A DNA stretch of 64,000 nucleotides from a virus, in the IMG/VR virus record IMGVR_UViG_3300035670_000087, one strand, 5' to 3'. Shown here piece after piece: positions 1,988-62,244 of this stretch (positions are counted from its first letter, which is position 1; every line of letters begins with the position of its first letter). The notes beneath the pieces were generated by a model. The model was not told the origin of the DNA. It did not search any database and worked only from the letters and a program-made list of their open reading frames with translations. Both the position numbers and the translations under genes were made by a program.

Positions 1988-1992
1988 TTATA

Positions 1993-2000
1993 TATAAATA
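1993..2000 (-). promoter_or_regulatory. TATTTATA putative late-promoter motif
   Basis: 5 nt upstream of ATG 1987. Confidence 0.6.
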
Positions 2001-3215
2001 TTAAGCTAAATTAAATCGTCTTTTATAGTTTGCATAGTTGTCTAGTATTTCAATATTAGATAGGTTTCTGTTGTATATTTTAGCCACGGCTACATATCCA
2101 CTAAATGGGTACCAATTAGTAGTCTGACCATCTCCTATATTAATACTGTTGCCTAAATTAGTTGGAGATCCTGAAAAAGTGTTAGACCCTCTAGATACCC
2201 CATTTATATAAATGGTGTTGGTAGTATTTACACCATCATAATATCTAGTACATACTACATGATTCCACACATTTAGAGATATAGTACCAGCTGATGTTGT
2301 TACTGTTCTTTGTACAGATGCTATATAATCAGAAAATATAATGCTATTTCCTTGATATACTCCCATATATGGTAAGAAACTTCCCATAAACATATTAAAA
2401 GTGTTTACACTTCCTAAGCATTTTATAACTACTTCAAATGTTGCATTTGCTCCTGGATACGTTATATCTGTTGTTATATTATCATCAGTTCCATCAAAAA
2501 GTAAAGATCCGCTAGCATCAAAAGATACTGAGGTTAAATCTATACCTATATTTTTAGATAGGTTATATAAAGATTGAGTTGAAGACCTAGTTGCTGCTAC
2601 TGGTAAAAACTGTCTAGGTCTCAGTACTTGAGATCCTTGACTTATCATAACTCCTGCTAATTGGACTTTGTTATAGGTGGCATACTCATAATGAAATAAA
2701 TAAGGCCTTATATAAGTAGCACTAGCATTAGTTGTAAAAGTTCCCCACGCATGTTTCCAACCTCCTCCTAAATCTTCTTGTCTGGTTGAGTCTAGCAATC
2801 CAAACTCCGATATAAGTCCTGAGGCTCCATATTGGTATTGGTACATATAGTTAGGACTTGAATATCCTGTTTCTGTTCTATATATTATCTGATACACGTA
2901 CTCCGTACTAGCATTTACAGAAATCTGATTAAAATAGAATAGATTTGGACAACACTGGCCGGATCCTCCAACATAATCGTTATATATATTACAATATGTT
3001 ACATTTCTAACTCCTCCCAATCCTTGTATATATACATCTTCTGTGCCGTAGTTAGTTTTGAAATAGAGGGTATCATTTGTACCTTGAAGATTGGTAATCA
3101 AGGGTACTAAATTAGTAGTAGGCTTACCTTTAAAACAATTATAAGGGTCTCCGGTATCATATGAAAATATCATACCATTAGTCACATTTTTAGAAAATCC
3201 TTGATTAGCTGCCAT
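2001..3215 (-). CDS. LamG/concanavalin-A-like lectin-domain virion protein with a central CBM-like domain
   Basis: FDGTDD, WNHVVCT, IYINGV, FSGYVAVAKIYNRNLSNIEILDNY are LamG-like beta-sandwich motifs. Confidence 0.85.
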   Translation of the reverse strand: MAANQGFSKNVTNGMIFSYDTGDPYNCFKGKPTTNLVPLITNLQGTNDTLYFKTNYGTEDVYIQGLGGVRNVTYCNIYNDYVGGSGQCCPNLFYFNQISVNASTEYVYQIIYRTETGYSSPNYMYQYQYGASGLISEFGLLDSTRQEDLGGGWKHAWGTFTTNASATYIRPYLFHYEYATYNKVQLAGVMISQGSQVLRPRQFLPVAATRSSTQSLYNLSKNIGIDLTSVSFDASGSLLFDGTDDNITTDITYPGANATFEVVIKCLGSVNTFNMFMGSFLPYMGVYQGNSIIFSDYIASVQRTVTTSAGTISLNVWNHVVCTRYYDGVNTTNTIYINGVSRGSNTFSGSPTNLGNSINIGDGQTTNWYPFSGYVAVAKIYNRNLSNIEILDNYANYKRRFNLA

Positions 3216-3216
3216 A

Positions 3217-5376
3217 TTATACTATACAAGTTCCGTTATTCGTTATTATTACATTAGAAATAGGCTGCACAGATTGTGCGCATACAAATTCTGTAGACAG
3301 TCCATTTACTGTTATTGAAGTAGAGGCTCCTGAACAATCCACATATGACACTACTCTAGGAGATCCTGCTGAATTATACAATTCATAAGAATCACACGGC
3401 ACAGGTGTTGATGTAGGAGCTTGGGTAGATGTAGGAGTTGGGGTAGGTGTAAATGTTGGTGGTAAAGGAGTTGGGGTTGAGGTAGGAATAGGAGTTGGGG
3501 TAGGTGTAAATGTTGGTGGTAAAGGAGTTGGGGTTGAGGTAGGAATAGGAGTTGGGGTTGAAGTGGCTGGTAATGGTGTAGGTGTGGATGTTGGAATAGG
3601 AGTTGGAGTAGCTGTAGCTGGTAAAGGAGTTGGAGTAGCTGTAGCTGGTAAAGGAGTTGGGGTTGAAGTAGGGACAGGAGTTGGGGTTGCTGTAGCTGGT
3701 AATGGTGTTGGAGTTGAAGTAGGAATAGGTGTTGGGGTTGGTGTAGCTGGTAAAGGAGTTGGGGTTGCTGTAGGTGTAGATGTTGGGGTAGGAGTAGGAG
3801 TAGATGTTGGAGTAGGAGTAGATGTTGGGGTAGGAGTAGATGTTGGAACAGGAGTTGGAGTAGGTAAGTACACAAATCTAGTTCTATAAGATTCGTAGTT
3901 GCTTTTTATTTCTGCTCCTGACAATACTCTATTATATACTCTGGCAATAGATATGTAGCAAGGAGTGTTATAACCTCCTCCGTGATAAGCTCCTAAATAA
4001 AATTTACCAGTTCCGGTAGTAGTTGTGTTTAAAGCTCCGGCAGATCCTATATAATTACCATCTATGTATAAAAAAGCTCCTACAGAGCTATTATTAACTA
4101 CCACTATGTGGTGATACTTTCCGTCTGGATGATAAGAATTAGAAAATGGGTTAGCTGTTCCATTTCCTATATTCCAATATATAGCATTAGAGTAGAAATA
4201 TAGATTAGGTCCGGAAGCATAATTATCCCCATTAACGGAAATAGGTATGACGTTATTATAGCTAGATGCTTGTATCATCATTTCCCAAGTACTATCTTTT
4301 CCTAATATTATATCTGCATTTAAATAATCGTCTGTACCATCAAAATAGAAATTACTACTAGCATCATAAGATAAGTTTCCTATGTTTATACTATTTTTTT
4401 TAGTGCTAATATCTAACAATCCTTGTGTAGATGATCTAGTAGATAGCGTAAATGCAGTAGCATGTCCTTTATTTATTTCTACTTGTAAATCAGATATATC
4501 AAGATCGTAAGGAACTAAAGCCCCTTGTGGAAACCAGTATTGATAAAAACTATATGTAGCAGATGCAATCCATGTATATGTAAATTTTTGCCAAACCCCC
4601 ATAAATCCTAAAATAGTAGACACACTAGGGGCAGAAGCGCCTCCAAAATAAGTTGCCCATACCACACTTTTTCCTTCTGCACTTTTAGTAACAGGTTTTA
4701 TCCAAAAAGACACAGTAACAATATTCCCTATAGTAACTGGGGTATAGACATTATAAGCCATGCCGTCCGCTACATTGTCCCCTCTGTACACATGTAATCT
4801 TATGCATGTTGTATTCTTAACATACCCCGGAGAGACTACTTCTTTTATTAAGCCTGAATTTGGTAAATGTGGATACCCCCACCACATGGTAGGGAAATCA
4901 ACAGAATTTATAGATATTTTAATATCCTTTGCATATGCATCGTGTACTTTGTAAAATCCTGTGTCTGGATTTACAAATCCTTGAGATCCATCTTGAGATG
5001 AATTATACTCATGTAAACTGAATTGAGTATCAGATATTTTTTTTACCACATAATTAACCCCTGCTGTTACTCCGCCTCCTGTTGTTTGTGGTGTAACAAC
5101 ATCAAAACTTCTTAAAGGATGTGCCGCAGTTAAAGTCACTATATTGCTAGTAACATCACTAATAGTCCCTATACTAAAATAACTACCGTTGTTATATTGA
5201 TTTACATTGTAAGTCCCCCATAAATTTCCAAAAGTAAACCTACCATTAAGTTCTGGGTTTGGTAATATATTAGTTGTAGGTTCTCCTACATAAGAATTTA
5301 TCTTATCTCCCGTATCATATGCAAGAGCTACGGAAGAAGTATCAAAAACTATTCTAGGTCCTGTTGTTGTAGGCAT
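3217..5376 (-). CDS. LamG-domain virion protein with C-terminal Pro/Thr mucin-like linker and small Cys domain
   Basis: FDGTDDY...YHHIVVV...LYIDG...[17 protein letters not shown], then about 145 aa of PT/PTST/ATAT repeats and a Cys-containing tail (CDSYEL...DCSG...VCAQ...GTCIV). Confidence 0.85.
3434..3547. repeat. Perfect 57-bp tandem duplication inside the Pro/Thr linker
   Basis: ggagttggggtaggtgtaaatgttggtggtaaaggagttggggttgaggtaggaata at 3434-3490 and 3491-3547. Confidence 0.9.
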
Positions 5377-6052: not shown

Positions 6053-9000
6053 CTAATATTCTGTTATCAATTTGTCAACATCTTTACGTTCAGCAAATAT
6101 AGTATAATAACAATCTATATAATCTTCCGACCCTACTATTACTTTTTCATAATCACTAGATTTTACATATAAATTTTGATGCTTTCCTATAGGAGTTAAA
6201 TTTACTGTTATAGTATTTTCATCTACAAGATTAACCCAATGATCAGGTAATATTATAGTATTGTCTCCTTTTAGTCTTCCTCTTACATACACAGAGTGTT
6301 CTGGTCCTTCTAATACACCGTACTGCAATTTCATGCCAGGTTTAGTCGGATGGTCTATCACAAACGATTTTATCGTTGCTGTTAAGACCCCTGTAATATC
6401 TACAGTACCTACATTTATTGACATTACTTGTGTAACAGAGGTAGGGGATGAAGTAGTGGTTCCTGCTCCTATAGATAATCCTCCAATATTTCCACCATTG
6501 AACTGGATATACCCCATCCAGGTAGAATCTACTTTTTGTTGAATTCTATGTCCTGATGTGTACCAATCAGAGCCGTTTCCTATTCTAATGTTTGTTATCT
6601 CTAAATTATCAACATTAGTAGTAGTGGTAGTAAAGTTTTGAAGTAACACTCTATCTCCTGAGGTGCTTCCTAAAGATCCTCCCGATATTGTTAATTTAGA
6701 AGCAGGAGATGTAGTACCTACTCCCAACAAACCAGCACTGGATACGTATACAGTACCAGAAGCTCCATTTGCAGAGTTTATATACAAAGGTCTTGCAGTA
6801 TAAGCTCCTATATAAAAAGTACTATCTGTTTCTAATACTAAGTCTCCAGTACCATATAAGCTACCATTTCCAGTTGTTCTGGTTATGTTTAATATGGTAC
6901 CATCAAAAGTTAGATTACTTTCCGCAACTGCTGCATTTGTAGTTCCATCTGAAGTTAGTACTCTATTGTCTGCTGGATTAGATACAGTATTGAACCCTGT
7001 TCCGCTAGTACCAGATGTTCCACTCTCTCCCATTGGACCAAATCCAACATTAGTAAATGCTAAATTCGTATTATATATTGATGAATCAAGGTGTAAAGGA
7101 GAGCCAATAGATCTAGCTACAGTTCTAAGTAAAGTCCCATCTAAATAATACCTAACATTGTACCCATCATAAGTAACATATGCTACAGAATCTACTGTAT
7201 ACGATCCAAAAGAACCTATTGATCCTCCACTCTCATAAATTGAAACAGTTGCGTTATTAAAATAAAAAGCATAATCAATTGATATATAAGAAGCATTTGT
7301 TGTTGGATCTGAGTTTAATCCAATCATCGCATACCCGGTAGTTGACGATATTTTTGATGTTACAAATACACCTCTTACATAGCCTTGTTGAGAATAAACT
7401 TGTGAATCCCATGCATTATTTGTTCCACCAGTTTTTGTAAATACATCAGGACTAGGTCCTTGTGTTACATTTGTCATTACTGGTGTCCAGGTTAAAGATC
7501 CGTTTTGTCCACTAGATCCTGAAGAACCGGATGATCCTGTACTACCAGATGTACCCGATGTTCCTGTTGAACCAGATGAACCAGATGAACCAGATGAACC
7601 GCTAGAACCGCTAGTTCCTGTGGAACCAGAAGAACCAGAAGAACCTCTTGATCCAGAAGATCCGCTAGAACCAGTAGATCCACTTGAACCACTAGTTCCT
7701 GTGGAACCAGAAGAACCAGAAGAACCTCTTGATCCAGAAGATCCACTTGAACCACTAGTTCCTGTGGAACCAGAAGAACCTCTAGAACCAGAAGATCCGG
7801 AAGTACCGCTACTTCCACTAGTACCTGTTGAGCCGCTAGAACCACTAGTTCCTGTGCTACCAGATGATCCGCTTGTTCCTGTAGAACCAGAGCTACCTGA
7901 TGTACCGGTAGAGCCAGAAGAACCGCTAGATCCTCTTGTTCCTGAAGATCCAGAACTGCCAGAAGTTCCGGTAGACCCACTAGACCCGGAAGTACCTGTT
8001 GACCCTGATGATCCTGAAGTGCCAGTTGAACCACTAGAACCAGAAGTACCTGTTGAGCCGCTAGATCCTGATGTTCCTGTAGAACCACTAGTTCCTGTAG
8101 ATCCGGATGTGCCAGTAGAGCCAGAAGATCCGCTTGAACCAGTAGATCCACTTGAACCACTCGTTCCTGTAGATCCAGATGAGCCACTAGATCCTGATGT
8201 TCCGGTTGATCCTGATGTTCCTGTGGAACCGCTGCTACCAGAGCTACCAGTTGATCCAGAGGATCCTGATGTTCCAGATGAACCTGATGTACCTGATGAT
8301 CCAGCTGTGCCGTCAGCTCCACTAGTTCTATAATAAAATTGGCCTGTTGTAGGATCTACTACTACAAATCTAGTTAATCCTGCATTTAGTGCAAGATCTT
8401 TTATTGCTACAGACCCCGATATTTTAACACTTCCTGTAAATTCTTGACTATCTGTTAAAGAATCTCCAAATATGTTACTACCGCTGCTGTATATTACTGA
8501 AGATGTAACATATTGTACTACTAAAGTATTTGCGAATATACTGCCTGGTGTTACTATATTACCACTAACGTTTAATGTGCCTGTTACATTAAAACTGTTG
8601 TTTGCATATATTAAATTTATAGAAGCTGTAGCAGCATTTACAGTATTATCTGCAAGAATTACTCTGCCTATACCAGGATTATGTATTGTATTAAATCCTG
8701 TTCCGCTACTTCCAGAAGAACCGCTAGTTCCTGATGTACCACTAGACCCACTAGAACCAGTAGAACCAGATGAACCAGAAGTACCAGTTGATCCTGAAGA
8801 TCCAGAAGTACCTGTAGAACCAGATGAACCAGAAGTACCAGTTGATCCTGAAGAACCTGAAGTGCCACTAGTACCGGAAGAGCCTCTAGTACCTGATGTA
8901 CCGCTAGACCCACTAGAACCTGAGGTTCCAGAAGATCCTCCAGTTCCTGCAGTTCCAGAAGATCCTGAAGTTCCTGTAGATCCAGAACTGCCAGAAGTTC

Positions 9001-12000
9001 CAGTTGAGCCAGAGGAACCGCTTGATCCGCTAGAACCTGATGTTCCACTAGTTCCCGTAGAACCTGATGTTCCAGTAGATCCTGAACTGCCAGAAGACCC
9101 GCTAGTTCCTGCGCTACCTGATGTTCCTGTTGAGCCACTTGTACCTGTACTACCAGAGGTTCCTGTGGAACCACTACTACCAGATGAACCACTAGAGCCG
9201 CTACTTCCTGATGTTCCTGTGGAACCACTACTACCAGAAGATCCTCTTGTTCCTGAAGAACCTGAGCTACCAGAGGTTCCTGTTGAACCAGACGATCCTG
9301 AAGTCCCTGTAGATCCAGAACTACCTGATGTTCCTGAAGAACCTGAGCTACCAGAGGTTCCTGTTGAACCACTACTACCAGATGAGCCACTAGAGCCGCT
9401 ACTTCCTGATGTTCCTGTACTACCAGAGGTGCCTGTGCTACCGCTACTACCGGAGGAGCCAGTTGAACCACTAGTTCCTGATGTTCCTGTAGAACCACTA
9501 CTACCTGATGTTCCTGAAGAACCTGAGCTACCAGAGGTTCCTGTGGAACCACTAGTTCCTGATGTTCCTGTGGAACCACTACTACCAGAAGATCCTCTTG
9601 TTCCTGAAGAACCTGAGCTACCGCTTGTTCCAGAACTACCCGATGTTCCTGTGCTACCAGAGGTTCCTGTTGAACCACTAGTTCCTGTGCTACCAGATGA
9701 TCCACTAGAGCCGCTTGTCCCTGAACTTCCCGATGACCCAGAAGTACCTGTAGAACCGCTACTTCCACTAGTTCCAGTAGATCCAGAAGAACCTGAAGAA
9801 CCTGAAGAACCTGAAGAACCTGAAGAACCTGAAGAACCTGAAGAACCTGAAGAACCTGAAGAACCTGATGTTCCACTTGACCCTGATGTTCCTGTTGATC
9901 CAGAACTTCCAGATGTTCCATCTGCTCCACTAGTCCTATAAAAAACATTTCCATCCTGGTCTACTACTAAAAATAAATTAGCACTAGAGCTTATTGGAAT
10001 ATTTCTTAAACTTAAAGAACCAGTTATTTTTACACTTCCTGTAAATAAATGATTGTCGGTAACACTATCTCCAAATATATTACTACCGCTACTGTAAATT
10101 ACAGAGGATGTTATATATTGTACTACTAAAGTATTAGCAAAAATATTACCTGGGGTTGAAATGTTCCCACTAACATTAAGAGCCCCTGTAACATTGAAAC
10201 TGTTGTTAGTATATAGTAAATTTATAGACGCAGTTGCTGCGTTTGTAGTTCCATCTGATAAAATAACTCTACCTTGTGCTGGGCTGTTTATTGTATTAAA
10301 TCCTGTACCAGAACTTCCTGAGGAGCCACTTGTGCCAGTAGACCCGCCAGTACCTGAAGAACCTGATGAGCCAGATGTACCTGAGCTCCCTGAAGTGCCT
10401 GTACTGCCGCTGCTACCAGAACTTCCTCTAGATCCAGAAGACCCACTTGAGCCGCTTGATCCTGTTGATCCAGAACTTCCAGATGTTCCAGTAGATCCTG
10501 ATGAACCAGAGGTTCCTGTACTACCAGAAGAACCACTTGTACCTGATGAACCAGAGGTTCCAGATGATCCAGTTGATCCACTACTACCTGATGAACCAGA
10601 TGTACCTGAGCTTCCTCTAGTACCAGAAGAGCCAGAGGAACCGCTAGAGCCAGAAGATCCCCCTGTGCCACTTGTTCCACTACTTCCAGAGGACCCAGAA
10701 GTACCCGTTGAACCTGAAGAACCAGAACTACCGCTAGATCCTGCTGTGCCAGATATACCAGATGAACCAGAGGTTCCTGTAGAACCAGATGTGCCAGAAG
10801 ATCCTGCTGTGCCACTTGTGCCAGAAGAACCGGAAGTTCCTGAAGTACCAGATGAACCACTTGTACCTGTACTACCAGATGAACCAGATGTTCCTGTAGA
10901 TCCTGAAGTTCCACTACTTCCACTAGTACCAGTCGATCCTGAAGTACCTGAGGTACCAGAAGAGCCTGTAGAACCTGAGGAGCCACTTGACCCTGTTGAT
11001 CCGCTTGTACCTGATGTACCGCTAGTACCAGTTGAACCGGAAGATCCAGAGGATCCTGTAGTTCCAGAAGTTCCCGATGTGCCGGAAGTACCACTACTTC
11101 CTCTAGTTCCTGAAGTTCCTGATGACCCAGAGCTGCCAGAAGTACCTGTAGATCCGGAAGAACCAGATGTACCTGTACTACCGCTTGATCCGCTTGTTCC
11201 TGAACTACCGTTTTGTCCTGAAGTTCCTGATGACCCACTAGAACCAGAAGTACCAGATGATCCGGAACTACCGTCTCCCCCACTAGCACCTGCCAAATTT
11301 ATACTCCAAGAAGAATAAGTTCCGCTACCTACTGTTGTACTAGGTGTAATAAATGTCAACAATCCTGTTATAGGATCATAAGATGATACTTGAGCTTCTT
11401 GATAATTATTTAAATCATAAGCTATTACTACAGTTTGTGTAATAGAATAAGCTAAGCCTGTTCCAACATAAAGGCTTCCACTGTTTCCTAAAGTAAATGA
11501 TCCAGTAGAAGATGTTAGATATCTATCTCCAGATAAACCTGCAGTACCTGAAGATCCAGAAGAGCCTGATGTTCCGGTTGATCCGCTAGAGCCGGATGAA
11601 CCTGAAGAGCCTGATGTTCCGGTACTACCGCTAGTACCAGTGGACCCTGATGATCCAGATGTGCCTGTAGATCCGCTACTGCCAGAAGAGCCTGATGTAC
11701 CAGATGACCCACTAGAACCAGAAGTACCAGTTGATCCTGATGTACCTGTTGTTCCTGAGCTGCCACCAGTACCCGAAGTACCTGTACTACCAGAAGATCC
11801 TGAACTTCCAGAAGAGCCAGATGAACCTGCTGTACCAGATGTTCCAGAACTTCCTCTAGATCCAGAAGATCCACTAGAACCTGAGGTACCTGTTGAACCG
11901 CTTGAACCACTAGTCCCACTAGAACCTGACGATCCCGTAGTTCCAGAAGTACCGGAAGATCCAGAAGTACCTGTAGTTCCTGACGATCCAGTAGACCCTG

Positions 12001-13717
12001 ATGACCCGCTAGACCCAGACGTACCTGCTGTACCTGTTGATCCACTACTTCCTGCTGAACCTGAAGAGCCTGATGTTCCTGTTGTTCCTGACGATCCAGT
12101 AGATCCTGAACTTCCTGATGTACCTGTAGACCCCGAACTTCCTGTTGATCCGCTACTTCCACTAGTACCAGACGTGCCTGATGTGCCAGTAGATCCTGAA
12201 GATCCTGATGTGCCACTTGAACCAGATGTTCCTGATGTGCCTGTAGAACCGCTAGATCCTGTAGATCCAGAAGATCCTGTTGAACCAGATGTACCGGATG
12301 ATCCTGAGGTACCAGTTGATCCTGAAGAACCAGAGGTACCAGTAGAGCCTGATGAGCCTGTAGATCCACTACTTCCACTAGAACCAGAAGAGCCTGATGT
12401 TCCGGTTGATCCGCTTGTACCTGATGTACCGCCAGTACCAGATGTACCTGTGGATCCACTAGACCCTGAATTTCCACTAGAACCGGATGTGCCTGAGGAG
12501 CCAGAACTACCTGAAGTACCTGATGAGCCGGATGTACCAGAAGATCCGGATGTGCCTGAACTGCCGGAAGACCCGGAAGTACCGCTTGTACCTGTAGAAC
12601 CTGAACTGCCAGAAGTTCCTGATGAGCCTGTAGAACCTGAGCTACCGCTAGATCCTGAAGTTCCAGTAGAACCGCTTGATCCAGAGCTTCCAGACGTGCC
12701 AGTAGATCCGCTAGATCCGGTGGTGCCTGATAAGCCTGAGGAACCGCTAGAGCCAGAACTTCCGGAGGTGCCGCTAGAACCTGAGGTACCTGAAGTACCA
12801 CTAGAGCCGTCAGCTCCACTAGTTCTATAATAAAATTGTCCAGTTACAGGGTCTACTACTACAAAAGTTGTTGAACCAGAATTTAAAGATAAATCTTTTA
12901 CGCTTAAAGACCCTGTTATAAGTACACTTCCAGTAAATTGATGTGTATCAGTTAAACTATCCCCAAATATATTACTACCGCTGCTGTATACTACTGAAGA
13001 TGTTACATACTCTACTACTAAAGTAGTTGCATATATGTTTCCTGGGGTTACTATATCTCCGCTAACATTTAAAGATCCAGTAACAGTTAAAGTATTATTG
13101 TTATATACTAAATTAGCAGAAGCTGTTGCTGCGTTTACAGAACCATCGGATAAAATTATTCTTCCTGGTCCGGGATCATGTATAGTATCAAATCCTGTTC
13201 CAGAAGAACCAGCTGTACCACTTGTACCTGTTGTTCCAGATGTGCCTGAAGTACCGCTTGTACCTGTTGTTCCAGATGTGCCTGAAGTACCGCTTGTACC
13301 TGTTGTTCCAGAAGAACCAGCTGTACCGCTTGTACCTGTTGTTCCACTTGTTCCACTAGACCCGTTAGTGCCAGAAGATCCTACGCCTCCAGATAAAGTA
13401 TATTGAAACTGCCCAGATACAGGATCTACTACTACAAAATAAGATGCACTAGAAGTTACCAGTAAGTGTTTATTATATATGGACCCAGAAATGTCTAAGG
13501 ACCCAGTAAAAGTTTGAATACCTATAAAAATATTGGATCCAGTAGTTGCTAATGATGCAGATTTTGAAGAAAATATAGGGTCGTTTTCTGGAAAAGAACC
13601 TGAGAAAGAACCTGTAAAAGAGCCTGAGAAAGATCCCGCAGTTACGGTATTCGATACTGTTAGATTTTTAAAATTTGCATCAGAACCATCTCTGGCTATC
13701 TGGATCCATGTTGCCAT
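6053..13717 (-). CDS. Giant (2554 aa) tail fibre-like protein: about 1500 aa of Gly-X-Y (X,Y mostly Ser/Thr) repeats interrupted by globular domains
   Basis: Near-strict Gly every third residue in five blocks; three copies of a ~125-aa domain; C-terminal IKSFVIDHP...LQYGVLEGPEHSVYVRG motif recalled from fibre C-termini. Confidence 0.85.
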   Translation of the reverse strand: MATWIQIARDGSDANFKNLTVSNTVTAGSFSGSFTGSFSGSFPENDPIFSSKSASLATTGSNIFIGIQTFTGSLDISGSIYNKHLLVTSSASYFVVVDPVSGQFQYTLSGGVGSSGTNGSSGTSGTTGTSGTAGSSGTTGTSGTSGTSGTTGTSGTSGTSGTTGTSGTAGSSGTGFDTIHDPGPGRIILSDGSVNAATASANLVYNNNTLTVTGSLNVSGDIVTPGNIYATTLVVEYVTSSVVYSSGSNIFGDSLTDTHQFTGSVLITGSLSVKDLSLNSGSTTFVVVDPVTGQFYYRTSGADGSSGTSGTSGSSGTSGSSGSSGSSGLSGTTGSSGSTGTSGSSGSSGSTGTSGSSGSSGSTGSSGTSGSSGSTGTSGTSGSSGSSGTSGSSGTSGSSGTSGSSGSSGTSGSSGNSGSSGSTGTSGTGGTSGTSGSTGTSGSSGSSGSSGSTGSSGSTGTSGSSGSTGTSGSSGTSGSTGSSGSTGSSGSTGTSGTSGSSGTSGSSGSTGTSGTSGTSGSSGSTGSSGSTGTSGSSGSTGSSGTTGTSGSSGSAGSSGSTGTAGTSGSSGSSGSTGSSGTTGTSGSSGTSGTTGSSGSSGTSGSSGSTGTSGSSGSSGSRGSSGTSGTAGSSGSSGSSGSSGSTGTSGTGGSSGTTGTSGSTGTSGSSGSSGTSGSSGSSGSTGTSGSSGSTGTSGSTGTSGSSGSSGSSGSTGTSGSSGSSGTAGLSGDRYLTSSTGSFTLGNSGSLYVGTGLAYSITQTVVIAYDLNNYQEAQVSSYDPITGLLTFITPSTTVGSGTYSSWSINLAGASGGDGSSGSSGTSGSSGSSGTSGQNGSSGTSGSSGSTGTSGSSGSTGTSGSSGSSGTSGTRGSSGTSGTSGTSGTTGSSGSSGSTGTSGTSGTSGSTGSSGSSGSTGSSGTSGTSGSTGTSGSSGTSGSTGTSGSSGSTGTSGSSGTSGTSGSSGTSGTAGSSGTSGSTGTSGSSGISGTAGSSGSSGSSGSTGTSGSSGSSGTSGTGGSSGSSGSSGSSGTRGSSGTSGSSGSSGSTGSSGTSGSSGTSGSSGSTGTSGSSGSTGTSGSSGSTGSSGSSGSSGSRGSSGSSGSTGTSGSSGTSGSSGSSGTGGSTGTSGSSGSSGTGFNTINSPAQGRVILSDGTTNAATASINLLYTNNSFNVTGALNVSGNISTPGNIFANTLVVQYITSSVIYSSGSNIFGDSVTDNHLFTGSVKITGSLSLRNIPISSSANLFLVVDQDGNVFYRTSGADGTSGSSGSTGTSGSSGTSGSSGSSGSSGSSGSSGSSGSSGSSGSSGSTGTSGSSGSTGTSGSSGSSGTSGSSGSSGSTGTSGSTGTSGSTGTSGSSGTSGSSGSSGTRGSSGSSGSTGTSGTSGSTGTSGSSGSSGTSGSSGSTGTSGTSGSTGSSGSSGSTGTSGSTGTSGSSGSSGSSGSSGSTGTSGSSGSSGTSGSSGSTGTSGSSGSTGTSGSSGSSGTRGSSGSSGSTGTSGSSGSSGSSGSSGSTGTSGSTGTSGSTGTSGSAGTSGSSGSSGSTGTSGSTGTSGTSGSSGSSGSSGSTGTSGSSGSTGTSGSSGTAGTGGSSGTSGSSGSSGTSGTRGSSGTSGTSGSSGSTGTSGSSGSTGTSGSSGSTGTSGSSGSTGSSGSSGTSGTSGSSGSSGTGFNTIHNPGIGRVILADNTVNAATASINLIYANNSFNVTGTLNVSGNIVTPGSIFANTLVVQYVTSSVIYSSGSNIFGDSLTDSQEFTGSVKISGSVAIKDLALNAGLTRFVVVDPTTGQFYYRTSGADGTAGSSGTSGSSGTSGSSGSTGSSGSSGSTGTSGSTGTSGSSGSSGSTGTSGSSGSTGSSGSSGSTGTSGSTGTSGSTGTSGSSGSTGTSGSSGSTGTSGSSGSTGTSGSSGSTGTSGSSGSSGTRGSSGSSGSTGTSGSSGSTGTSGSSGSTGTSGSSGSTGTSGSSGTSGSSGSRGSSGSTGTSGSSGSSGSRGSSGSSGSTGTSGSSGSTGSSGSSGSRGSSGSSGSTGTSGSSGSSGSSGSSGSTGTSGTSGSTGSSGSSGSSGQNGSLTWTPVMTNVTQGPSPDVFTKTGGTNNAWDSQVYSQQGYVRGVFVTSKISSTTGYAMIGLNSDPTTNASYISIDYAFYFNNATVSIYESGGSIGSFGSYTVDSVAYVTYDGYNVRYYLDGTLLRTVARSIGSPLHLDSSIYNTNLAFTNVGFGPMGESGTSGTSGTGFNTVSNPADNRVLTSDGTTNAAVAESNLTFDGTILNITRTTGNGSLYGTGDLVLETDSTFYIGAYTARPLYINSANGASGTVYVSSAGLLGVGTTSPASKLTISGGSLGSTSGDRVLLQNFTTTTTNVDNLEITNIRIGNGSDWYTSGHRIQQKVDSTWMGYIQFNGGNIGGLSIGAGTTTSSPTSVTQVMSINVGTVDITGVLTATIKSFVIDHPTKPGMKLQYGVLEGPEHSVYVRGRLKGDNTIILPDHWVNLVDENTITVNLTPIGKHQNLYVKSSDYEKVIVGSEDYIDCYYTIFAERKDVDKLITEY
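9786..9866. repeat. Perfect 9-bp microsatellite (gaagaacct)x9 encoding (GSS)n
   Basis: Counted directly: nine identical units from 9786 to 9866. Confidence 0.95.
13215..13345. repeat. 36-bp near-perfect tandem repeats (about 3.6 units) in the first Gly-X-Y block
   Basis: Units begin gtacc(a/g)cttgtacctgttgttccaga at 13215, 13251, 13287 and 13323. Confidence 0.85.
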
Positions 13718-13752: not shown

Positions 13753-13760
13753 TATAAATA
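13753..13760 (-). promoter_or_regulatory. TATTTATA putative late-promoter motif
   Basis: Intergenic, upstream of the giant fibre gene. Confidence 0.6.
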
Positions 13761-15772: not shown

Positions 15773-16173
15773 TAATCAGTTTTTATTAGTGTATCTAATT
15801 TGGGAGTAGCAGCAACTATACCAGGAATATTATTTAATCCTTTTTCTTTATCTGATCTAACCATAGCATGTTTTATAAAATTCAAATGGGTTTTTGGATC
15901 TTTATTAGTTATGAATTTTACTTCTACAGTGCTATATTCGTAGTCTTTTAATGTTCTATTTATTTTATCAAGCCTTTCATCGCCTCTCAGGTCTACAATA
16001 GTTACCGTAGGTATGCCCCTAACTCTTTCAACTGCCTGTACTCTATTTATTTTTCTTTTAAACTTTACAAGAAACACACAAGAATAGCTATGAAAGGTTT
16101 TTTTTATAGATTGTTTTCTTCTAAACCTATAATCATTATCTTTTTCTAATAATATGTCTAATAATTTAGTCAT
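15772..16173 (-). CDS. Hypothetical protein
   Basis: 133 aa, stop/start overlaps with both neighbours; N-terminus MTKLLDILLE. Confidence 0.7.
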   Translation of the reverse strand: MTKLLDILLEKDNDYRFRRKQSIKKTFHSYSCVFLVKFKRKINRVQAVERVRGIPTVTIVDLRGDERLDKINRTLKDYEYSTVEVKFITNKDPKTHLNFIKHAMVRSDKEKGLNNIPGIVAATPKLDTLIKTD

Positions 16174-17339
16174 TAAGCTATAATAATTGGCATTGGAAAA
16201 TTAACAAAAGTCTCTCTCATCATCGAAGCCTCTTGAGATTTCTTTTCTAACTGCTTTTGACGAGACGTATCATCTAAAGTTGCTCTTAATTGTTCAACTA
16301 AAGCAGTCTTTTCTGCATTTGCTTGATCAATTAATGTCTGTCCGTTAACTGTAACCTCCGCTCCTGGTACAGGTATCTGACTATATACACCCCTAATATT
16401 ACCTAATGTCTCTTTTGTGACAGCTAAAGCGTAATCAAATATCCATTTTTTAAATATATCATTTATTTGATTGTAATTAATGTTATTATAAGGAACATTG
16501 CTTACATTAGTTATCAATCCATTAGAAGGGTTTCTATATAAAGCACTTCTTTCTGATTTTTTAATATAAGTAAAGAACATTTTTCTATTAAAAGTAGGTA
16601 TTGGAAAAATCCTAAGCTTATTATTTATAAGTTCAAACCCGTACCCTGACTTTCTTATTTGATCATTAAACTCAATTGCTTGTATTTTTAATACATCAAA
16701 ATAAACTGGCATCAACATAAAGTTAATTCCAGGAGAAAATTGACCAAATCCAAAAGTTTCCATCAAAGATTGAAGACCAGTACCCGTTCCGGCATACGGA
16801 TCAAAATACCTTACAATCGCTGGGGATGCCTCATAAAATATTCTTTTTATTTCTATACTATCTCCGGGAGTTAAAGAGGCTGATGCGCTAGCCCATGCAG
16901 CTAAATCATAATGTTGTTGTCCTGCTATTAAGTCTATAGACCCAGAATAGTAGTTTATATTACCTCCGCTACCTACTTCACTTCCATAATCAGCAGCTAT
17001 TCTAAACATATTCTCAAAATTCGGTTGAATTAGAGTTGTGTTTAGTGAACTTCCAGTTGTATTTCCTTCTAAAGAAAGATAGTTTTCTCTTATTTTATAC
17101 TCATATAACTCTTTGCCATACACAGCTACTGCATCTTCTAAAGAAGCGTAGAAATTTATGTCTTGCAATTCAATTTCCATGATTGGATAACCAAGTCTCC
17201 TAGCAGCAAACTTGACAAATTTTTGACCATCAGTCTGAAATTCAGAGTCTGTATCAAAAAATCCAAATGGAGTATTTCCCGAAACAGGAAGTAACGGGAC
17301 ACTCGCATCATAATATTGTATTTCTACTTGGCCAGCCAT
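16173..17339 (-). CDS. T4 gp13-like neck protein (head-tail adaptor)
   Basis: ARRLGYPIMEIEL, WIFDYALAVTKETLGNIRG.YS.IPVPG..VTVNGQTL resembles the gp13 family. Confidence 0.75.
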   Translation of the reverse strand: MAGQVEIQYYDASVPLLPVSGNTPFGFFDTDSEFQTDGQKFVKFAARRLGYPIMEIELQDINFYASLEDAVAVYGKELYEYKIRENYLSLEGNTTGSSLNTTLIQPNFENMFRIAADYGSEVGSGGNINYYSGSIDLIAGQQHYDLAAWASASASLTPGDSIEIKRIFYEASPAIVRYFDPYAGTGTGLQSLMETFGFGQFSPGINFMLMPVYFDVLKIQAIEFNDQIRKSGYGFELINNKLRIFPIPTFNRKMFFTYIKKSERSALYRNPSNGLITNVSNVPYNNINYNQINDIFKKWIFDYALAVTKETLGNIRGVYSQIPVPGAEVTVNGQTLIDQANAEKTALVEQLRATLDDTSRQKQLEKKSQEASMMRETFVNFPMPIIIA

Positions 17340-17349: not shown

Positions 17350-17363
17350 TATAAATATAAATA
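17350..17363 (-). promoter_or_regulatory. Two overlapping TATTTATA motifs
   Basis: 17350-57 and 17356-63, upstream of the gp13-like gene. Confidence 0.6.
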
Positions 17364-18067: not shown

Positions 18068-18075
18068 TATAAATA
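18068..18075 (-). promoter_or_regulatory. TATTTATA putative late-promoter motif
   Basis: Between the capsid terminator and phoH. Confidence 0.6.
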
Positions 18076-18084
18076 TTTTAAAAT

Positions 18085-18118
18085 AAATAAAAAAGCCGGA
18101 AATAATATTCCGGCCTTT
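18085..18118 (-). terminator. Rho-independent terminator after the major capsid gene
   Basis: Minus strand GCCGGAA-tattat-TTCCGGC followed by TTTTTTATTTATTT. Confidence 0.9.
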
Positions 18119-18138
18119 CTATATTTTATCTTCTCAGA

Positions 18139-19779
18139 TTAGTAACCATTGTCAAGATCTGCTACTTCAACTTTACCGAAGAACTCGGAACGCAACATTT
18201 TCTTAGCGTACCTGGTCATCAGACCTTTTCTTGGAGTGAAAGTCTCAGGATCATACAACAGTGGAGTCATAATCAATGGGATATAAGGAGCAAACACAGC
18301 ACCTGTTTCAAGGAACTGGCTACCTTTATAAGCCAAGAGAATAGTGTTTTCGTTCATGTATGGATTAACATACACTTTGTAACGGCTATTCAGTTGTCCA
18401 GCTTTGTGTGAACCCATTGCAAATTCTTCTTTGCTACCATCGGTATCAGCGGCATAGCCAGGGATAGATTCGATGATTGTTGCGATAGAAGGACCGCACA
18501 TGAGAACGTTAGCTTGACCACGCAAAGTCTTCTGGTGAATCTTACGAGCTACGCTCTGGATCTTAGTACCAAGAGTGGCGAACCACTGACCTTGAGTGTT
18601 GTAATAACCACCAGCACCAGCAGCAGACTGTGACCAAGTACCAGCTACCCTGTTGTAGAAGGTGTTGGCAGAAGCAGACCAGTAATCTGTAGTGTTAGCG
18701 TTTTGGATCAACATGTCGATGATTTCGAGGTCGATCTCAAGAGAGATATATTCTGACAGAGTAGAAGTCAATTCAGCTTCAGCGTCAAGAGACTGGTAAG
18801 CATTCAGGTCTTGGCTGAATTCTGGAGTCCACTTAGCTTTAAGTTTCCTTGTTTTAGCAACTACGGCCTCAGAACGAAGTTCAACGTTAATCTCAGGGAT
18901 AGCGTTAGAACCAGTTAAAGGAGATGATGCTGCATCTTCGAAGTCACCACGGCTGTTGTCAGCAGGTTGCTTCTGATAGAATACTACGCCAGAACCAGAA
19001 CCCAAGTTCAATTGACCAGCAGAGCCAGATACAATGAAAGAAAGGGTGTCGTTAGAAGCGTAAGAAGTAAATTCAGCAAACAAGTTGCTTTCGTTTACAC
19101 CACTACCAGTTACGATGAAACCACGAACAGCGTTGATGTCGAGGTTAGTCAAAGAACCGCTAGCAGAAGTTACAGACAACTTACGAAGTCTACCAGCAGC
19201 AGCAGAAGCGCTATAGATAGAGTTAAAGTTAACATCAGCAGCAGAAGCTGTAGTGATGGTGTAGTTTACAGAAGCAGAGTAGTTGTTGATTGAGTAACCA
19301 AAACGACCAGCACCGTAAAGACCACCAGCAGGGTTAACATCTTTTACGTTAGTTGTACCGTACATGCTGTCACCAGATGTGAAACGGTTTGTCAGAGGAG
19401 TACCAGGACGGTTGTTACCATACTTGAATTCCAAGAAGAACACAAGACCAGCAGGCAATGTCATTGGCTGCACGCTAACGAACTCTTTAGAAGAGATTTC
19501 AGCGAAGATCTTACGAACCAAAGGAAGAGCTACACCAGCCCATTGCTCACCAGCACCTACGGTAAATGTACCACCGGTACCAGTTTGAGATTGTTCTACG
19601 AGAAGCTGCTTAGCTTGGTTTTCGAGGATGATAGACATCCTTTCTTTACCGTAGGCTTGGTTCTTAAGGTCATTACCCTCAAGAAGACCCGTAGCTTCCC
19701 ACTTCTTCACCAACCTTGTAGCTTCGTTCATTTGCGAAGCGTACGGATTGGAGCTTTCGAGGAGAGATTGTACGTTCAT
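18139..19779 (-). CDS. gp23: Major capsid protein, T4 gp23-like (HK97 fold)
   Basis: VSVQPMTLPAGLVFFL, AKTRKLKAKWTPEFSQDL, EAELTSTLSEYISLEIDLEII, YAPYIPL-like FAPYIPL, TPRKGLMTRYA. Confidence 0.97.
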   Translation of the reverse strand: MNVQSLLESSNPYASQMNEATRLVKKWEATGLLEGNDLKNQAYGKERMSIILENQAKQLLVEQSQTGTGGTFTVGAGEQWAGVALPLVRKIFAEISSKEFVSVQPMTLPAGLVFFLEFKYGNNRPGTPLTNRFTSGDSMYGTTNVKDVNPAGGLYGAGRFGYSINNYSASVNYTITTASAADVNFNSIYSASAAAGRLRKLSVTSASGSLTNLDINAVRGFIVTGSGVNESNLFAEFTSYASNDTLSFIVSGSAGQLNLGSGSGVVFYQKQPADNSRGDFEDAASSPLTGSNAIPEINVELRSEAVVAKTRKLKAKWTPEFSQDLNAYQSLDAEAELTSTLSEYISLEIDLEIIDMLIQNANTTDYWSASANTFYNRVAGTWSQSAAGAGGYYNTQGQWFATLGTKIQSVARKIHQKTLRGQANVLMCGPSIATIIESIPGYAADTDGSKEEFAMGSHKAGQLNSRYKVYVNPYMNENTILLAYKGSQFLETGAVFAPYIPLIMTPLLYDPETFTPRKGLMTRYAKKMLRSEFFGKVEVADLDNGY

Positions 19780-21000: not shown

Positions 21001-21053
21001 TAATAAATATATAAAAAAAGTAAAAAACTATATTTTATATAAAATTTTTACTT

Positions 21054-26296: not shown

Positions 26297-26304
26297 TATA
26301 AATA
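26297..26304 (-). promoter_or_regulatory. TATTTATA putative late-promoter motif
   Basis: Intergenic after portal. Confidence 0.6.
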
Positions 26305-28191: not shown

Positions 28192-28199
28192 TATAAATA
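28192..28199 (-). promoter_or_regulatory. TATTTATA putative late-promoter motif
   Basis: Intergenic upstream of portal. Confidence 0.6.
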
Positions 28200-31455: not shown

Positions 31456-31463
31456 TATAAATA
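31456..31463 (-). promoter_or_regulatory. TATTTATA putative late-promoter motif
   Basis: Between TAG at 31465 and ATG at 31451. Confidence 0.6.
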
Positions 31464-33433: not shown

Positions 33434-33441
33434 TATAAATA
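33434..33441 (-). promoter_or_regulatory. TATTTATA putative late-promoter motif
   Basis: Intergenic upstream of ATG 33415. Confidence 0.6.
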
Positions 33442-37997: not shown

Positions 37998-38005
37998 TAT
38001 AAATA
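37998..38005 (-). promoter_or_regulatory. TATTTATA putative late-promoter motif
   Basis: Intergenic upstream of the LRR gene. Confidence 0.6.
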
Positions 38006-39505: not shown

Positions 39506-39537
39506 CAAAGATATAGACTATATATCTTTCTTCCAAA
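39506..39537 (-). promoter_or_regulatory. Bacteroidota housekeeping-sigma promoter upstream of primase
   Basis: Minus strand TTTG (39537-39534), 20-nt spacer, TATCTTTG (39513-39506), ending 4 nt before the ATG. Confidence 0.7.
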
Positions 39538-41774: not shown

Positions 41775-42860
41775 TTATATAAATATAGTTTTGTTTACTT
41801 TTGACAAAGCGGATCCTATTACTTGATGCATATCGTAGTATTTGTAATCAGCAAGTCTACCTCCAAAAATATATTTAGTTTCTATATTCATTAAACTTTT
41901 ATACTTATTATACTTAATATTATTTTCAGTATCATTTATAGGATAATAAGGGTCTCCATTATTTTCAGGAAATTCCATAGATATTACAGTGTTACTTTGT
42001 TTGCCATACTCAAAATGCTTGTGTTCTGTTATCCTAGTAAACGGGACTTCCTCGTCCGTATAATTCATCCCAGCAACTCCTTGATAATCACTCATTTGAA
42101 GATTGTATGTCTCAAATCTCAAACTTCTGTAATCTAGTTTTCCAAACTGATTATTATAAAATTCATCTATAGGTCCTGTATAGATTATTTTTTTAGCTAT
42201 GGATTCAAAATAGTCCCTGTCTTTAAAATAATCATAGTTTAGTCTAACATTTATACCTTTTAACAGTTTTTGGAATATTTGAGTATAACCTCCTATGGGT
42301 ATCCCAGAGTAAGTATCGTCATAGTAATTATCATCGAAAGATAACCTTATTGGAAGCCTTTTTATTATACTAGTAGGTAAGTTTTTTGGATCCTTATTCC
42401 ATTGTTTTTTTGTATATCCTTTTATAAAAATATTATAAATCTCAGGACCTACTTGAGAAATAGCCCAATCTTCTAAATTCTTTGGGTCATTTATATTTAC
42501 TTTAACATCCTCTAGCTTCCTAAAAGCTTCATCCGGAGTCGTCACTCCATAGATTTGATACAACGTCATTAAATTTATAGGAAAAGAATATATACTTCCT
42601 TTATAATTTACTTTCGGCCTATACTTAAAATCATTAAACTCTGCGTACTTTCTTACGTAGTCCCATATATTTTTATCAGAGGTATGAAATATGTGAGGAC
42701 CGTATTTATGTACATTTATACCTTCCGTATTTTCAGTATAACAGTTACCTCCTATATGAGATCTTTTGTCTATTACTAAACACTTAAACCCTCTATCGGT
42801 TAATTCTCTAGCACATACAGCTCCAAATAGACCTGATCCTACAATTAAATAATCAAACAT
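41775..42860 (-). CDS. glf: UDP-galactopyranose mutase
   Basis: IVGSGLFGA FAD motif, HIGGNCY, HKYGPHIFHT, GYTKKQW, TRITEHKHF, PYYP, GGRLADYKYYDMHQVI. Confidence 0.97.
   Translation of the reverse strand: MFDYLIVGSGLFGAVCARELTDRGFKCLVIDKRSHIGGNCYTENTEGINVHKYGPHIFHTSDKNIWDYVRKYAEFNDFKYRPKVNYKGSIYSFPINLMTLYQIYGVTTPDEAFRKLEDVKVNINDPKNLEDWAISQVGPEIYNIFIKGYTKKQWNKDPKNLPTSIIKRLPIRLSFDDNYYDDTYSGIPIGGYTQIFQKLLKGINVRLNYDYFKDRDYFESIAKKIIYTGPIDEFYNNQFGKLDYRSLRFETYNLQMSDYQGVAGMNYTDEEVPFTRITEHKHFEYGKQSNTVISMEFPENNGDPYYPINDTENNIKYNKYKSLMNIETKYIFGGRLADYKYYDMHQVIGSALSKVNKTIFI
41778..41785 (-). promoter_or_regulatory. TATTTATA putative late-promoter motif overlapping the last codons of glf
   Basis: 4 nt upstream of ATG 41773. 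Confidence 0.55.
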
Positions 42861-43469: not shown

Positions 43470-43472
43470 GTA

Positions 43473-46035: not shown

Positions 46036-47285
46036 TATAATACTTTTTCGTATCTATCGCTCCATTGTTTTTCCTCATCAAATAAATACATTACTATTTT
46101 TTGAGGTTTATCAGAAGTTTGAATATTGACTGTAGTCTTGTTTTTTTCCAATTTTACATATTCAGGACTTTCCTCAATTGTAAAATCTTTTCTATACAAT
46201 TCAACTCCACTTCTAGTATGTACAGCAAAAGTTAAAAATTTAGGATTTTGAAAGTCATACTGTTTAAAAAATTCAACATCCCATTCGCAATCAAAAGTAT
46301 ACTTAGTTAATACAAACTGATCTTCCCAAGGTTCTGGATTTGGTGGTTCTTTTACTTTTAGGGTGTACTCTTGTATTCTACAATTCTTAAAATCAAATCC
46401 TCCATAAACTTCGTAATCATGTAAAGATCTTACGTCTCCTAGTCCATACATTCCCATATCTATACCATGATCCTCCTGTCCAAAAAGTTGCCTTGTTTTG
46501 TTCCTAGCAAAAATATCTCTTTCCCCAGAAGTTTTTTTAGTTTGACTTTCTAATCCATGATCGTCCCAATGCTTTACACGATAGTTTCTCGTGTACTCGT
46601 GCCACATTACCATTCGATATGGGCTGAAAAAATCATATCCTTTTGTGAAAGCTCTGACGCTTAGTGTAGTTTCTTCTGTGTACCCTCCAAAATATATGTC
46701 TGGGTCATATGGTACCTCCTCTATGAACTTTCCTGATGTAAAATAGAAATGGCCGCTTATAGTTCGGGCTCTTATAACTTTATCCCTCTCTTTATAATCT
46801 TGTATGTACCATGGCATACTCATTAAGAGTTTATCAGCAGAAAATTCATACTGAGACATTAAACATGGTGTTTTATCGTATTTACACGAACAATCTTTAG
46901 GATTAAACGGAGTGCAATAAGTAGTTATAATTGGTTTTTCGGATACTTGAAGAGCTTGATTATAGTCCTCCAGTACGATCTCATCCCAATCCTGAACAAA
47001 TCTATGGTGGCTATCTATTTGTAAAGTGTATTTTTCACCATCATATAATTTGTTTGTTATGTTTCTTGCCCAACCTAAACCTTGACTTTCAGAATAATGA
47101 TGTTTACTTATTCTGACATTTTCCATGTGATCTAATACACTAATATCTTCTGTTTCGTCATATTGCCAACAAATGCCAAAAGTTAAATTATTAGCATTTT
47201 TTGCCTTGGTTATCATATCATCAATAGTAGGAATAAGTTCAGGATCTCTATAACTAGCTATTTGCACAAATATCTTATTATTCAT
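46035..47285 (-). CDS. GT60-like (Skp1/mucin-type) peptide N-acetylglucosaminyltransferase
   Basis: IFVQIASYRD, QGLGWAR, LQIDSHHRFVQDWD, ISGHFYF, VPYDP..YF.GYTEE..LSVRAFTKGYD, WHEY. Confidence 0.85.
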   Translation of the reverse strand: MNNKIFVQIASYRDPELIPTIDDMITKAKNANNLTFGICWQYDETEDISVLDHMENVRISKHHYSESQGLGWARNITNKLYDGEKYTLQIDSHHRFVQDWDEIVLEDYNQALQVSEKPIITTYCTPFNPKDCSCKYDKTPCLMSQYEFSADKLLMSMPWYIQDYKERDKVIRARTISGHFYFTSGKFIEEVPYDPDIYFGGYTEETTLSVRAFTKGYDFFSPYRMVMWHEYTRNYRVKHWDDHGLESQTKKTSGERDIFARNKTRQLFGQEDHGIDMGMYGLGDVRSLHDYEVYGGFDFKNCRIQEYTLKVKEPPNPEPWEDQFVLTKYTFDCEWDVEFFKQYDFQNPKFLTFAVHTRSGVELYRKDFTIEESPEYVKLEKNKTTVNIQTSDKPQKIVMYLFDEEKQWSDRYEKVL

Positions 47286-47302: not shown

Positions 47303-47310
47303 CAAATATA
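47303..47310 (-). promoter_or_regulatory. Bacteroidota -7 promoter element in front of the glycosylation operon
   Basis: TATATTTG (TAnnTTTG) in the 35-nt gap, 17 nt upstream of the ATG; -33 TTTG not well matched. Confidence 0.55.
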
Positions 47311-48891: not shown

Positions 48892-48899
48892 TATAAATA
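48892..48899 (-). promoter_or_regulatory. TATTTATA putative late-promoter motif
   Basis: Intergenic upstream of the mucin-like gene. Confidence 0.6.
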
Positions 48900-53525: not shown

Positions 53526-53533
53526 TATAAATA
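53526..53533 (-). promoter_or_regulatory. TATTTATA putative late-promoter motif
   Basis: Intergenic upstream of ATG 53509. Confidence 0.6.
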
Positions 53534-61433: not shown

Positions 61434-61831
61434 TAGGTTATTTGTATTAAAATTGAATCGGCATCATTGTTTATTGAATAAACTAATTTTATATTTAAAA
61501 TGCTTCTGTTTATGTCAGAGGTAAATTCAAGAGACTCTACTGTTATCATTGGAAAATATATAGACAAATCCTCTAATAAAATATCCCTAGCATTAGTATA
61601 ATCAGAGTTTTGATCAAATAAAATCCTTCTGAGGTTTGCTCCGAATTCGGGATTAAAGACCCTTTCTCCCTTATTAGTTAGCATGTAATTAGTTAAATTA
61701 CTCTTTATTTGGTTCTTTGTAGTGTAATTTATTGTAAATACATTGTAAGTATTAAAAGGAAGTTTTATTCCTATCCCTCTATTTGGGTTTCTTTGACTTG
61801 AATCAATCCTATATTCTTTTCTTGGAGGCAT
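61433..61831 (-). CDS. gp25: Baseplate wedge subunit, T4 gp25-like (sheath initiator)
   Basis: QIKSNLTNYMLTNKGERVFNPEFGANL. Confidence 0.92.
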   Translation of the reverse strand: MPPRKEYRIDSSQRNPNRGIGIKLPFNTYNVFTINYTTKNQIKSNLTNYMLTNKGERVFNPEFGANLRRILFDQNSDYTNARDILLEDLSIYFPMITVESLEFTSDINRSILNIKLVYSINNDADSILIQIT

Positions 61832-61832
61832 A

Positions 61833-62219
61833 TTATCCTACTCTGTTTTTAAGCTCTTTCCAAGCTATTGAATCTTTTTTTATAAATGGAATAGGTGCGT
61901 CTATATCCGGCAAAGTCCCATTTGTGGATATCTGCATAGCTGCTTCTTCAGATATTTTAGGTATTGGAGAAGCAGTTCTAGGACTATAATCAGATCCTAT
62001 AGCTTCTCTAAGCCTAGTCCTAAATTCTTCTGGGTTTTGGGAAGTTTGTTGAGATTGTACTAATCTTCCCTCTTTTATTGACTTGGCTACCAATAGTTTA
62101 ACTTCTTTAAGTTCTTTTCTAATACCATTATCAACTTCCTCCTTAACCGCCTCTCTTACAGCTGATTTTACGGCTTCTTTTATAAGTTCTTTAAAAAGTA
62201 TTAATTCATCTCTTGTCAT
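61833..62219 (-). CDS. Hypothetical protein
   Basis: 128 aa; FKELIKEAVKSAVREAVKEE helical repeat. Confidence 0.65.
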   Translation of the reverse strand: MTRDELILFKELIKEAVKSAVREAVKEEVDNGIRKELKEVKLLVAKSIKEGRLVQSQQTSQNPEEFRTRLREAIGSDYSPRTASPIPKISEEAAMQISTNGTLPDIDAPIPFIKKDSIAWKELKNRVG

Positions 62220-62244
62220 ATTAATAAATATTTAGTTAAAAATT

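Follow-up and report, generated by a model that had tools for sequence, protein, structure and literature searches.

A putative one-element promoter box ahead of virion genes in an Immutovirus-related phage, and a candidate phage sigma factor that may read it

Introduction

T4 late transcription is the standard textbook example of a minimal sigma factor whose full activity depends on a sliding clamp, and the T4 late box is regarded in reviews as nearly invariant among T4 relatives. The promoters carry the box TATAAATA, which is read by gp55, with gp33 and the gp45 clamp as activators (PMC2988020, PMC7892883). In the numbering of this box, which starts at T-13 (PMC2988020), gp55 places A-12 and A-8 in deep pockets and A-9 in a shallow one (PMC7892883). 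Here we describe a box, TATTTAT(A/T), that recurs ahead of genes in a 64,000-nucleotide (nt) stretch of IMG/VR virus record IMGVR_UViG_3300035670_000087 (hereafter the window). We consider it likely that this box is a one-element phage promoter, read by a phage sigma factor and heading virion-related transcription units.

All genes of the window lie on the minus strand, the coding strand, and form the virion region of a gp23-type myovirus, with capsid, portal, terminase, protease, adaptor, baseplate wedges, and fibres. The closest isolate is Flavobacterium phage immuto, with 54% capsid identity and a similar gene order. Judged by its sequence, the phage is a large T4-like myovirus related to Immutovirus, and its host, presumed to belong to the Bacteroidota, is probably of Flavobacterium type. 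Primary-sigma promoters of Bacteroidota carry −33/−7 elements of the form TTTG/TANNTTTG (PMC6847099, PMC9723704), and leaderless mRNAs are rare in F. psychrophilum, at 5.5% (PMC9723704). An IMG/VR genome collinear with the window at 75–88% nucleotide identity, G001, served as proxy for the whole genome.

Results

The box is enriched upstream of genes on the coding strand

The first-pass annotation of the window had listed copies of the box 3–35 nt before start codons, with one exception at 21002. Every listed site is exact on the minus strand, as TATTTATT at 21002 and 62223 and as TATTTATA elsewhere (Table 1), and the distance from the box end to the ATG is indeed 3–35 nt, with 105 nt at 21002. 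The box had further been placed in nearly every intergenic gap. It is present in 11 of 13 gaps of at least 20 nt and in 13 of 21 gaps of at least 10 nt, but the phrase is too strong for the window as a whole, where 37 of 58 gene junctions are shorter than 10 nt and these tight junctions, the majority, are mostly without a box. Two large gaps have none, namely the major capsid gene's own leader and the gap before a glycosyltransferase block, which has a host-type element instead. The boxes stand preferentially ahead of virion and packaging blocks (portal, scaffold/capsid, adaptor, baseplate, and fibre).

Taken over its full length, the window has only marginally more matches than expected (22, versus 14.5 ± 3.6; 3 of 100 shuffles reach 22); 18 lie on the coding strand. 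The 50-nt segments upstream of genes, which add up to 2,950 nt, hold 13 matches, and the remaining 60,291 nt hold 5 (odds ratio 53, p = 3e-14). Of the 59 upstream segments, 12 contain TATTTATA; when these AT-rich segments were dinucleotide-shuffled 1,000 times, the average was 0.83 and no shuffle gave more than 5. TATTTAT(A/T) is present in 13 of the 59, where shuffling gives approximately 1.6. The T4 consensus TATAAATA occurs in none of the 59. The enrichment asserted earlier over an AT-matched background is therefore borne out. The idea that the words arise by chance in AT-rich spacers, or that they bind a phage repressor or activator, draws on the 84% AT content of the intergenic DNA and on the marginal whole-window count. 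However, the composition-matched shuffles fall well short of the observed number, and the strict orientation and start-site-like spacing described below are more typical of a core promoter element than of an operator, so we give this idea next to no weight. The box in the window is a real feature.

The box and its orientation are conserved in related phages

The box is conserved in immuto, in the IMG/VR genomes G001 and G002, and in phage Mel-JY01, at genes of the same kinds, and it recurs at 144 of 160 related loci. In immuto, 21 of 38 virion-half gaps contain it, versus 13 of 69 gaps in the non-virion half (p = 2e-4), where several copies precede GroES/EL and an endolysin-holin block. Rhodothermus phage RM378, which has genes on both strands, uses the variant TATTTAAA. 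This variant stands in gene orientation before 16 minus-strand and 11 plus-strand genes (27 of 152 open reading frames, ORFs), with one copy per side at several divergent gene pairs, and is often 5–8 nt from the ATG. The literature searched contained no description of the box, of immuto or RM378 promoters, or of TATTTAAA, and the bS21-phage paper is silent on promoters and sigma (PMC9723584).

Mel-JY01 is recorded as a "Microcystis phage" (PP395634.1). It has the same box, sigma, and bS21, and its capsid protein is 52% identical to that of the window phage. Since these are traits of Bacteroidota-type phages, its cyanobacterial host label may deserve a check.

The box reads in sense as a variant of the T4 late box

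The box had initially been described as the reverse complement of the T4 consensus. This is literally true and yet misleading, since in sense it is equally a variant of TATAAATA with two substitutions, AA to TT at positions 4–5. The frame TATnnATA is self-complementary, and the likeness to the T4 reverse complement is a coincidence that follows from this palindromic frame. Six of eight positions are shared with the T4 box in sense, including the deep-pocket bases A-12 and A-8, whereas A-10 and A-9 are changed. As with T4 late promoters, a lone 8-base-pair box without an upstream element stands ahead of virion genes of a gp23-type myovirus. In a control on T4, TATAAATA was the top 8-mer, with 12 matches.

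If the functional element were TATAAATA on the opposite strand, T4-type promoters would fire antisense into the upstream genes. The plus strand at the box does spell the exact T4 consensus, and the clade has a gp55-like sigma (see below). Nevertheless, the position of the box is tied to the downstream ATG, with a peak at 3–4 nt, a purine bias lies on the sense-downstream side, and the conserved flank is a 5' A/C. On the opposite strand, the RM378 box reads TTTAAATA, which departs from the T4 box and loses A-12, a base that gp55 holds in a deep pocket (PMC7892883). The common TATTTATT variant, when reverse-complemented, departs from the T4 box as well. The window also has no plus-strand genes to serve. 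An antisense function thus has a very slim chance of being correct.

Spacing predicts a start just past the box and a leaderless class

The distance between box and ATG is bimodal, with 90 of 477 pooled sites (a number that includes homologous sites) at 3–4 nt, few at 5–9 nt, and then a second group at 10–22 nt. Counted by gene family (n = 86), the median is 3–5 nt in 15 families and 6–9 nt in 4. In a family whose N-terminus resembles that of the 62219 product, likely the same gene, the box lies 3 nt from the ATG in 42 of 48 loci. Among the long-leader sites of three genomes, 70 of 79 have a purine as the third base past the box (p = 3e-9). The box at 18068 and 15 cases in four genomes come right after an intrinsic terminator, with no host-type promoter between. 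Transcription is predicted to start 3–4 nt past the box, compared with 5 nt in T4. The window genes starting at 62219, 41773, 31451, and perhaps 1987 would consequently be leaderless, whereas T4 boxes lie 14–28 nt from the ATG in the region tested.

We also considered that the box acts in the mRNA, as an AU-rich translational enhancer (e.g., a bS1 site) or a processing signal. Genes of the presumed hosts have A-rich leaders and no Shine-Dalgarno sequences (PMC6847099), the leaders of the window genes are of the same kind, and most boxes are at most 25 nt from the ATG. However, the distance ranges from 3 to 105 nt, and boxes occur only at block heads, with none in the capsid gene's own leader or at internal genes. 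Some lie just past terminators with no other promoter, and the purine bias keeps a fixed offset from the box independent of the position of the ATG. Moreover, the known host determinants are single adenines at −3, −6, −12, and −13, not a box word. We regard a role in the mRNA as highly improbable. Both alternatives offered by the first-pass annotation, antisense promoters and a translational enhancer, are disfavoured by these tests.

A separate host-type motif class precedes other genes

Immuto and G002 have a second motif, in which TTG precedes TA(T/C)nTTTAG at a constant distance and which is concentrated on small early genes. Its consensus form, TTG-N-TAnnTTT(A)G, is close to that of Bacteroidota primary-sigma promoters (PMC6847099). 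Of 61 host-type sites, 43 have TTG at the spacing of host promoters, compared with 8 of 77 box sites (p = 1e-13), and base composition is flat across the 40 nt upstream of pooled box sites, with no −35-like element. In immuto, the regional bias of this class is opposite to that of the box, favouring the non-virion half (p = 0.002). In the window, such elements stand ahead of the primase gene and the glycosyltransferase block (Table 1). The one at 39502–39513 lies just 4 nt from the primase ATG, which suggests a leaderless mRNA from a host-type promoter too. The 61–76 kb region of immuto (L002:10900-26300) contains about 25 near-identical strong early promoters, AGTTGC-N-TA(T/C)nTTTAG followed by (G/A)TAT, with AG in place of the host-consensus G. 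A generic sigma-70 scan of 13–33 kb stayed at chance level (71 vs 71.6).

These two classes bear on another reading, in which the promoter box is a variant form of the Bacteroidota −7 element. The host primary sigma would then recognize it, either unaided or with a phage activator redirecting it, and the phage sigma would act on a different target. Both classes begin with TA about 11 nt ahead of the predicted start and share the string TATTTA, a few sites look hybrid (immuto 25061), and, given the weakness of the −33 element in F. johnsoniae (PMC6847099), the missing TTG is not decisive. On the other hand, the box does not match the host −7 consensus TAHHTTTG; placed in the same register, TATTTATA (TA-TT-TATA) breaks its near-invariant T-7 and G-5 (PMC6847099). 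The true host-type sites form a class of their own, found ahead of the early and replication genes of these phages and separated from the box by genome region, gene set, and the upstream TTG. In addition, the box shifts to TATTTAAA in RM378, whose sigma homologue is divergent, although the RM378 host differs too. Recognition by the host sigma is improbable in our assessment.

Relatives encode a candidate sigma with a gp55-like sigma-2 domain

A gp55-like sigma had been proposed to lie elsewhere in the genome, and a candidate was found in collinear relatives, outside the window. In G001, an unannotated ORF of 262 amino acids (aa) at 128397–129182 gives a weak match to Sigma70_r2 (PF04542). Window position 63686 corresponds to G001 position 126403, which would put the ORF approximately 2 kb past the window end by collinearity. 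Homologues occur in immuto (gp118, 43% identity), Mel-JY01, the 484-kb phage LR756508 (36%), and RM378 (p020, E = 1e-8 with a family profile), and are labelled hypothetical in the annotated records. The family comprises 2,134 clusters at 50% identity, 1,328 of them with E below 1e-10. The gene sits just upstream of the virion cluster (immuto gp118, RM378 p020). Of 51 loci, 48 have a box after the stop codon of this gene; in the remaining 3, as in G001, the box and the last codons overlap. RM378 also has a box at this stop. At L087:1096-1884, from the closest lineage, the ORF has lengthened across the downstream box, so that the box now codes for the end of the protein. The sigma of close relatives has a basic N-terminal motif, G-x-x-R-K-R-K-P-K, that resembles an AT-hook and is absent from most distant members. 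RM378 has a second, annotated sigma, p144 (phrog_1740), and G002 a second sigma-like ORF of 178 aa.

When the AlphaFold model of the sigma (predicted local distance difference test score, pLDDT, 76) was compared with 48,161 chains, the top match was T4 gp55 (7d7d_F; Z 10.2, root-mean-square deviation 5.5, 115 residues aligned). In the alignment of a deep sigma profile with gp55, gp55 residue Y97, which stacks on A-12, falls on sigma Y118, a tyrosine conserved in 105 of 116 sequences, whereas N13 and H95, the gp55 contacts to A-9, align to T38 and F/Y116 and are replaced. Shallow profile comparisons with gp55 were not significant, a gp55 hidden Markov model misses the sigma, sequence searches against solved structures gave no match, and Foldseek returned weak matches only, mostly sigma factors.

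Unlike gp55, the sigma is about 250 aa long and carries an extra, conserved C-terminal domain of about 95 aa, which is modelled confidently as four helices (pLDDT 87). In a fold search with this domain, sigma-4 structures scored Z 4.8–5.3, below unrelated helical folds at 6.3, and gp33 was absent among the 50 matches listed. The group 3 and extracytoplasmic function (ECF) sigmas (SigB, SigW, SigE), together with RM378 p144, share with the candidate the two-domain size, the sigma-2 fold (Z 7.6–9.6), and a C-terminal helix-turn-helix-like domain. It differs from them in that it has no sequence match to solved sigmas, its C-terminal domain is no closer to sigma-4 than to unrelated helical folds, and its presumed target promoters lack a second element.

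The T4 cofactors gp33 and gp45 were not found

The cofactor searches covered the complete genomes of immuto and G002 and the approximately 80% complete G001. The gp33 profile PF16805 found T4 (6e-28) but not immuto, G001, G002, or G003, although a very divergent form could escape it. The gp45 profile PF09116 found T4 (4e-53) but not immuto, RM378, G001, or G002. PF02916 gave no match, and the T4 clamp and clamp-loader proteins gp45, gp44, and gp62 had no phmmer match. In further contrast to T4, immuto has family A DNA polymerases.

Other features of the window

The collagen-repeat fibre gene (6053–13717) encodes 15 collagen-repeat stretches and is followed by LamG and endosialidase-chaperone genes; G001 has several such collagen genes. 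Within the virion region, 41775–47285 holds glycosyltransferase-like and sugar-modifying genes with the host-type promoter at their head. The 105-nt leader of the scaffold-capsid block (20897–21001) contains an inverted repeat at 20921–20943 and may be regulatory; a long leader is also present in G001 and immuto.

Table 1. Boxes, host-type elements, and landmark genes (window positions unless a locus prefix is given)
Feature	Position	Strand	Remark
Box TATTTATT	62223..62230	-	3 nt to ATG 62219 (128 aa, head of baseplate-wedge genes); predicted leaderless
Box TATTTATA	53526..53533	-	16 nt to ATG 53509; gene at matching position boxed in immuto (90661) and G001 too
Box TATTTATA	48892..48899	-	11 nt to ATG 48880
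Host-type −7 element TATATTTG	47303..47310	-	Upstream TTG; precedes box-less glycosyltransferase block
Box TATTTATA	41778..41785	-	Overlaps stop codon of upstream ORF; 4 nt to ATG 41773; predicted leaderless
Host-type −7 element TATCTTTG	39506..39513	-	Precedes box-less DNA primase gene
Box TATTTATA	37998..38005	-	16 nt to ATG 37981; after primase block
Box TATTTATA	33434..33441	-	18 nt to ATG 33415
Box TATTTATA	31456..31463	-	4 nt to ATG 31451; block ends with large terminase; predicted leaderless
Box TATTTATA	28192..28199	-	27 nt to portal gene
Portal gene	26308-28164	-	
Box TATTTATA	26297..26304	-	15 nt to 282-aa gene heading block that leads to prohead protease
Box TATTTATT	21002..21009	-	105 nt to putative scaffold gene; same long-leader layout in G001 and immuto
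Putative scaffold gene	19805-20896	-	Major capsid gene behind it
gp23-type major capsid gene	18139..19779	-	Places the phage; own A-rich leader without box
Intrinsic terminator-like hairpin	18087..18122	-	3' of major capsid gene
Weaker box copy TATTTATT	18082-18089	-	Within T tract of capsid terminator
Box TATTTATA	18068..18075	-	Right after terminator of capsid transcript; 11 nt to phoH
Two overlapping boxes	17350..17363	-	10 and 16 nt to head-tail adaptor gene
Head-tail adaptor gene	16173-17339	-	
Box TATTTATA	13753..13760	-	35 nt to 2554-aa collagen-repeat fibre gene
Box TATTTATA	1993..2000	-	5 nt to ATG 1987; perhaps leaderless
immuto gp118	L002:28174-28872		Sigma-like family; annotated hypothetical
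RM378 p020	L090:17032-17826		Sigma-like family; annotated hypothetical

Discussion

In its presumed mode of action, the box resembles a T4 late promoter, yet it is outside the gp55/gp33/gp45 system by box sequence and by cofactors. We propose that it serves as a sense-strand, −10-type element at the head of virion, packaging, lysis, and chaperone transcription units, and that it would be read by the host RNA polymerase core carrying a phage sigma with a gp55-like sigma-2 domain. Transcripts would start at the purine 3–4 nt past the box, giving leaderless mRNAs where the ATG lies 3–5 nt downstream. Early and replication genes would be served by the separate host-type promoter TTG-N-TAnnTTT(A)G. 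The system would operate without gp33 and the gp45 clamp, and the C-terminal helical domain of the sigma may provide a second polymerase contact. The suggestion made at the outset, a clade-specific late promoter with a gp55-like sigma, gains from the candidate sigma in collinear relatives and the promoter-like spacing, while its late timing and the assignment of this sigma are inferred.

Several observations weigh against this proposal. The sigma gene of the window's own genome is deduced from relatives and would lie outside the window. The fold does not single out gp55 by far, as S. aureus SigB (Z 9.6) follows less than 1 Z unit behind and other sigmas come next, and a deep sigma profile matches gp55 residues 13–120 weakly (E = 0.001, hhalign probability 20%). 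In G001, two boxes stand at the head of the sigma operon and no host-type promoter was found close by, so that the first expression of the sigma would need another source. LR756508 has the sigma, but no clear TATTTAT enrichment was seen in the 90 kb examined. About one third of the immuto boxes are outside the virion half, and phoH in the window has a box, so "late" is not strict. Homologous sites are also included in the pooled box counts. The intergenic DNA of LR756508 shows only a looser pattern, (T/A)A(C/T)TTA(A/T)(A/T), a possible box variant.

A broader proposal, which we hold tentatively and would not quite back, is that a very large T4-related clade, apparently phages of Bacteroidota and Rhodothermota, carries out late transcription with a stand-alone sigma, composed of a gp55-like sigma-2 domain and a C-terminal domain of its own, without gp33 or a clamp, with a box that co-varies with the sigma and with conserved leaderless mRNAs. 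Unlike the T4 textbook case, this clade appears to have a different box, a longer sigma, and neither clamp nor gp33, and its sigma family, although large, is called hypothetical in the annotation of its cultured members. The pairing, clamp independence, and leaderless translation are open to direct testing in two cultured systems, immuto on Flavobacterium LMO8 and RM378 on Rhodothermus marinus. The box aids the annotation of operons and gene starts in these abundant aquatic phages, and the box-sigma pair could become an orthogonal expression system for Bacteroidota. If the proposal is true, the stand-alone sigma would represent the gp55 system as it looks without replication coupling.

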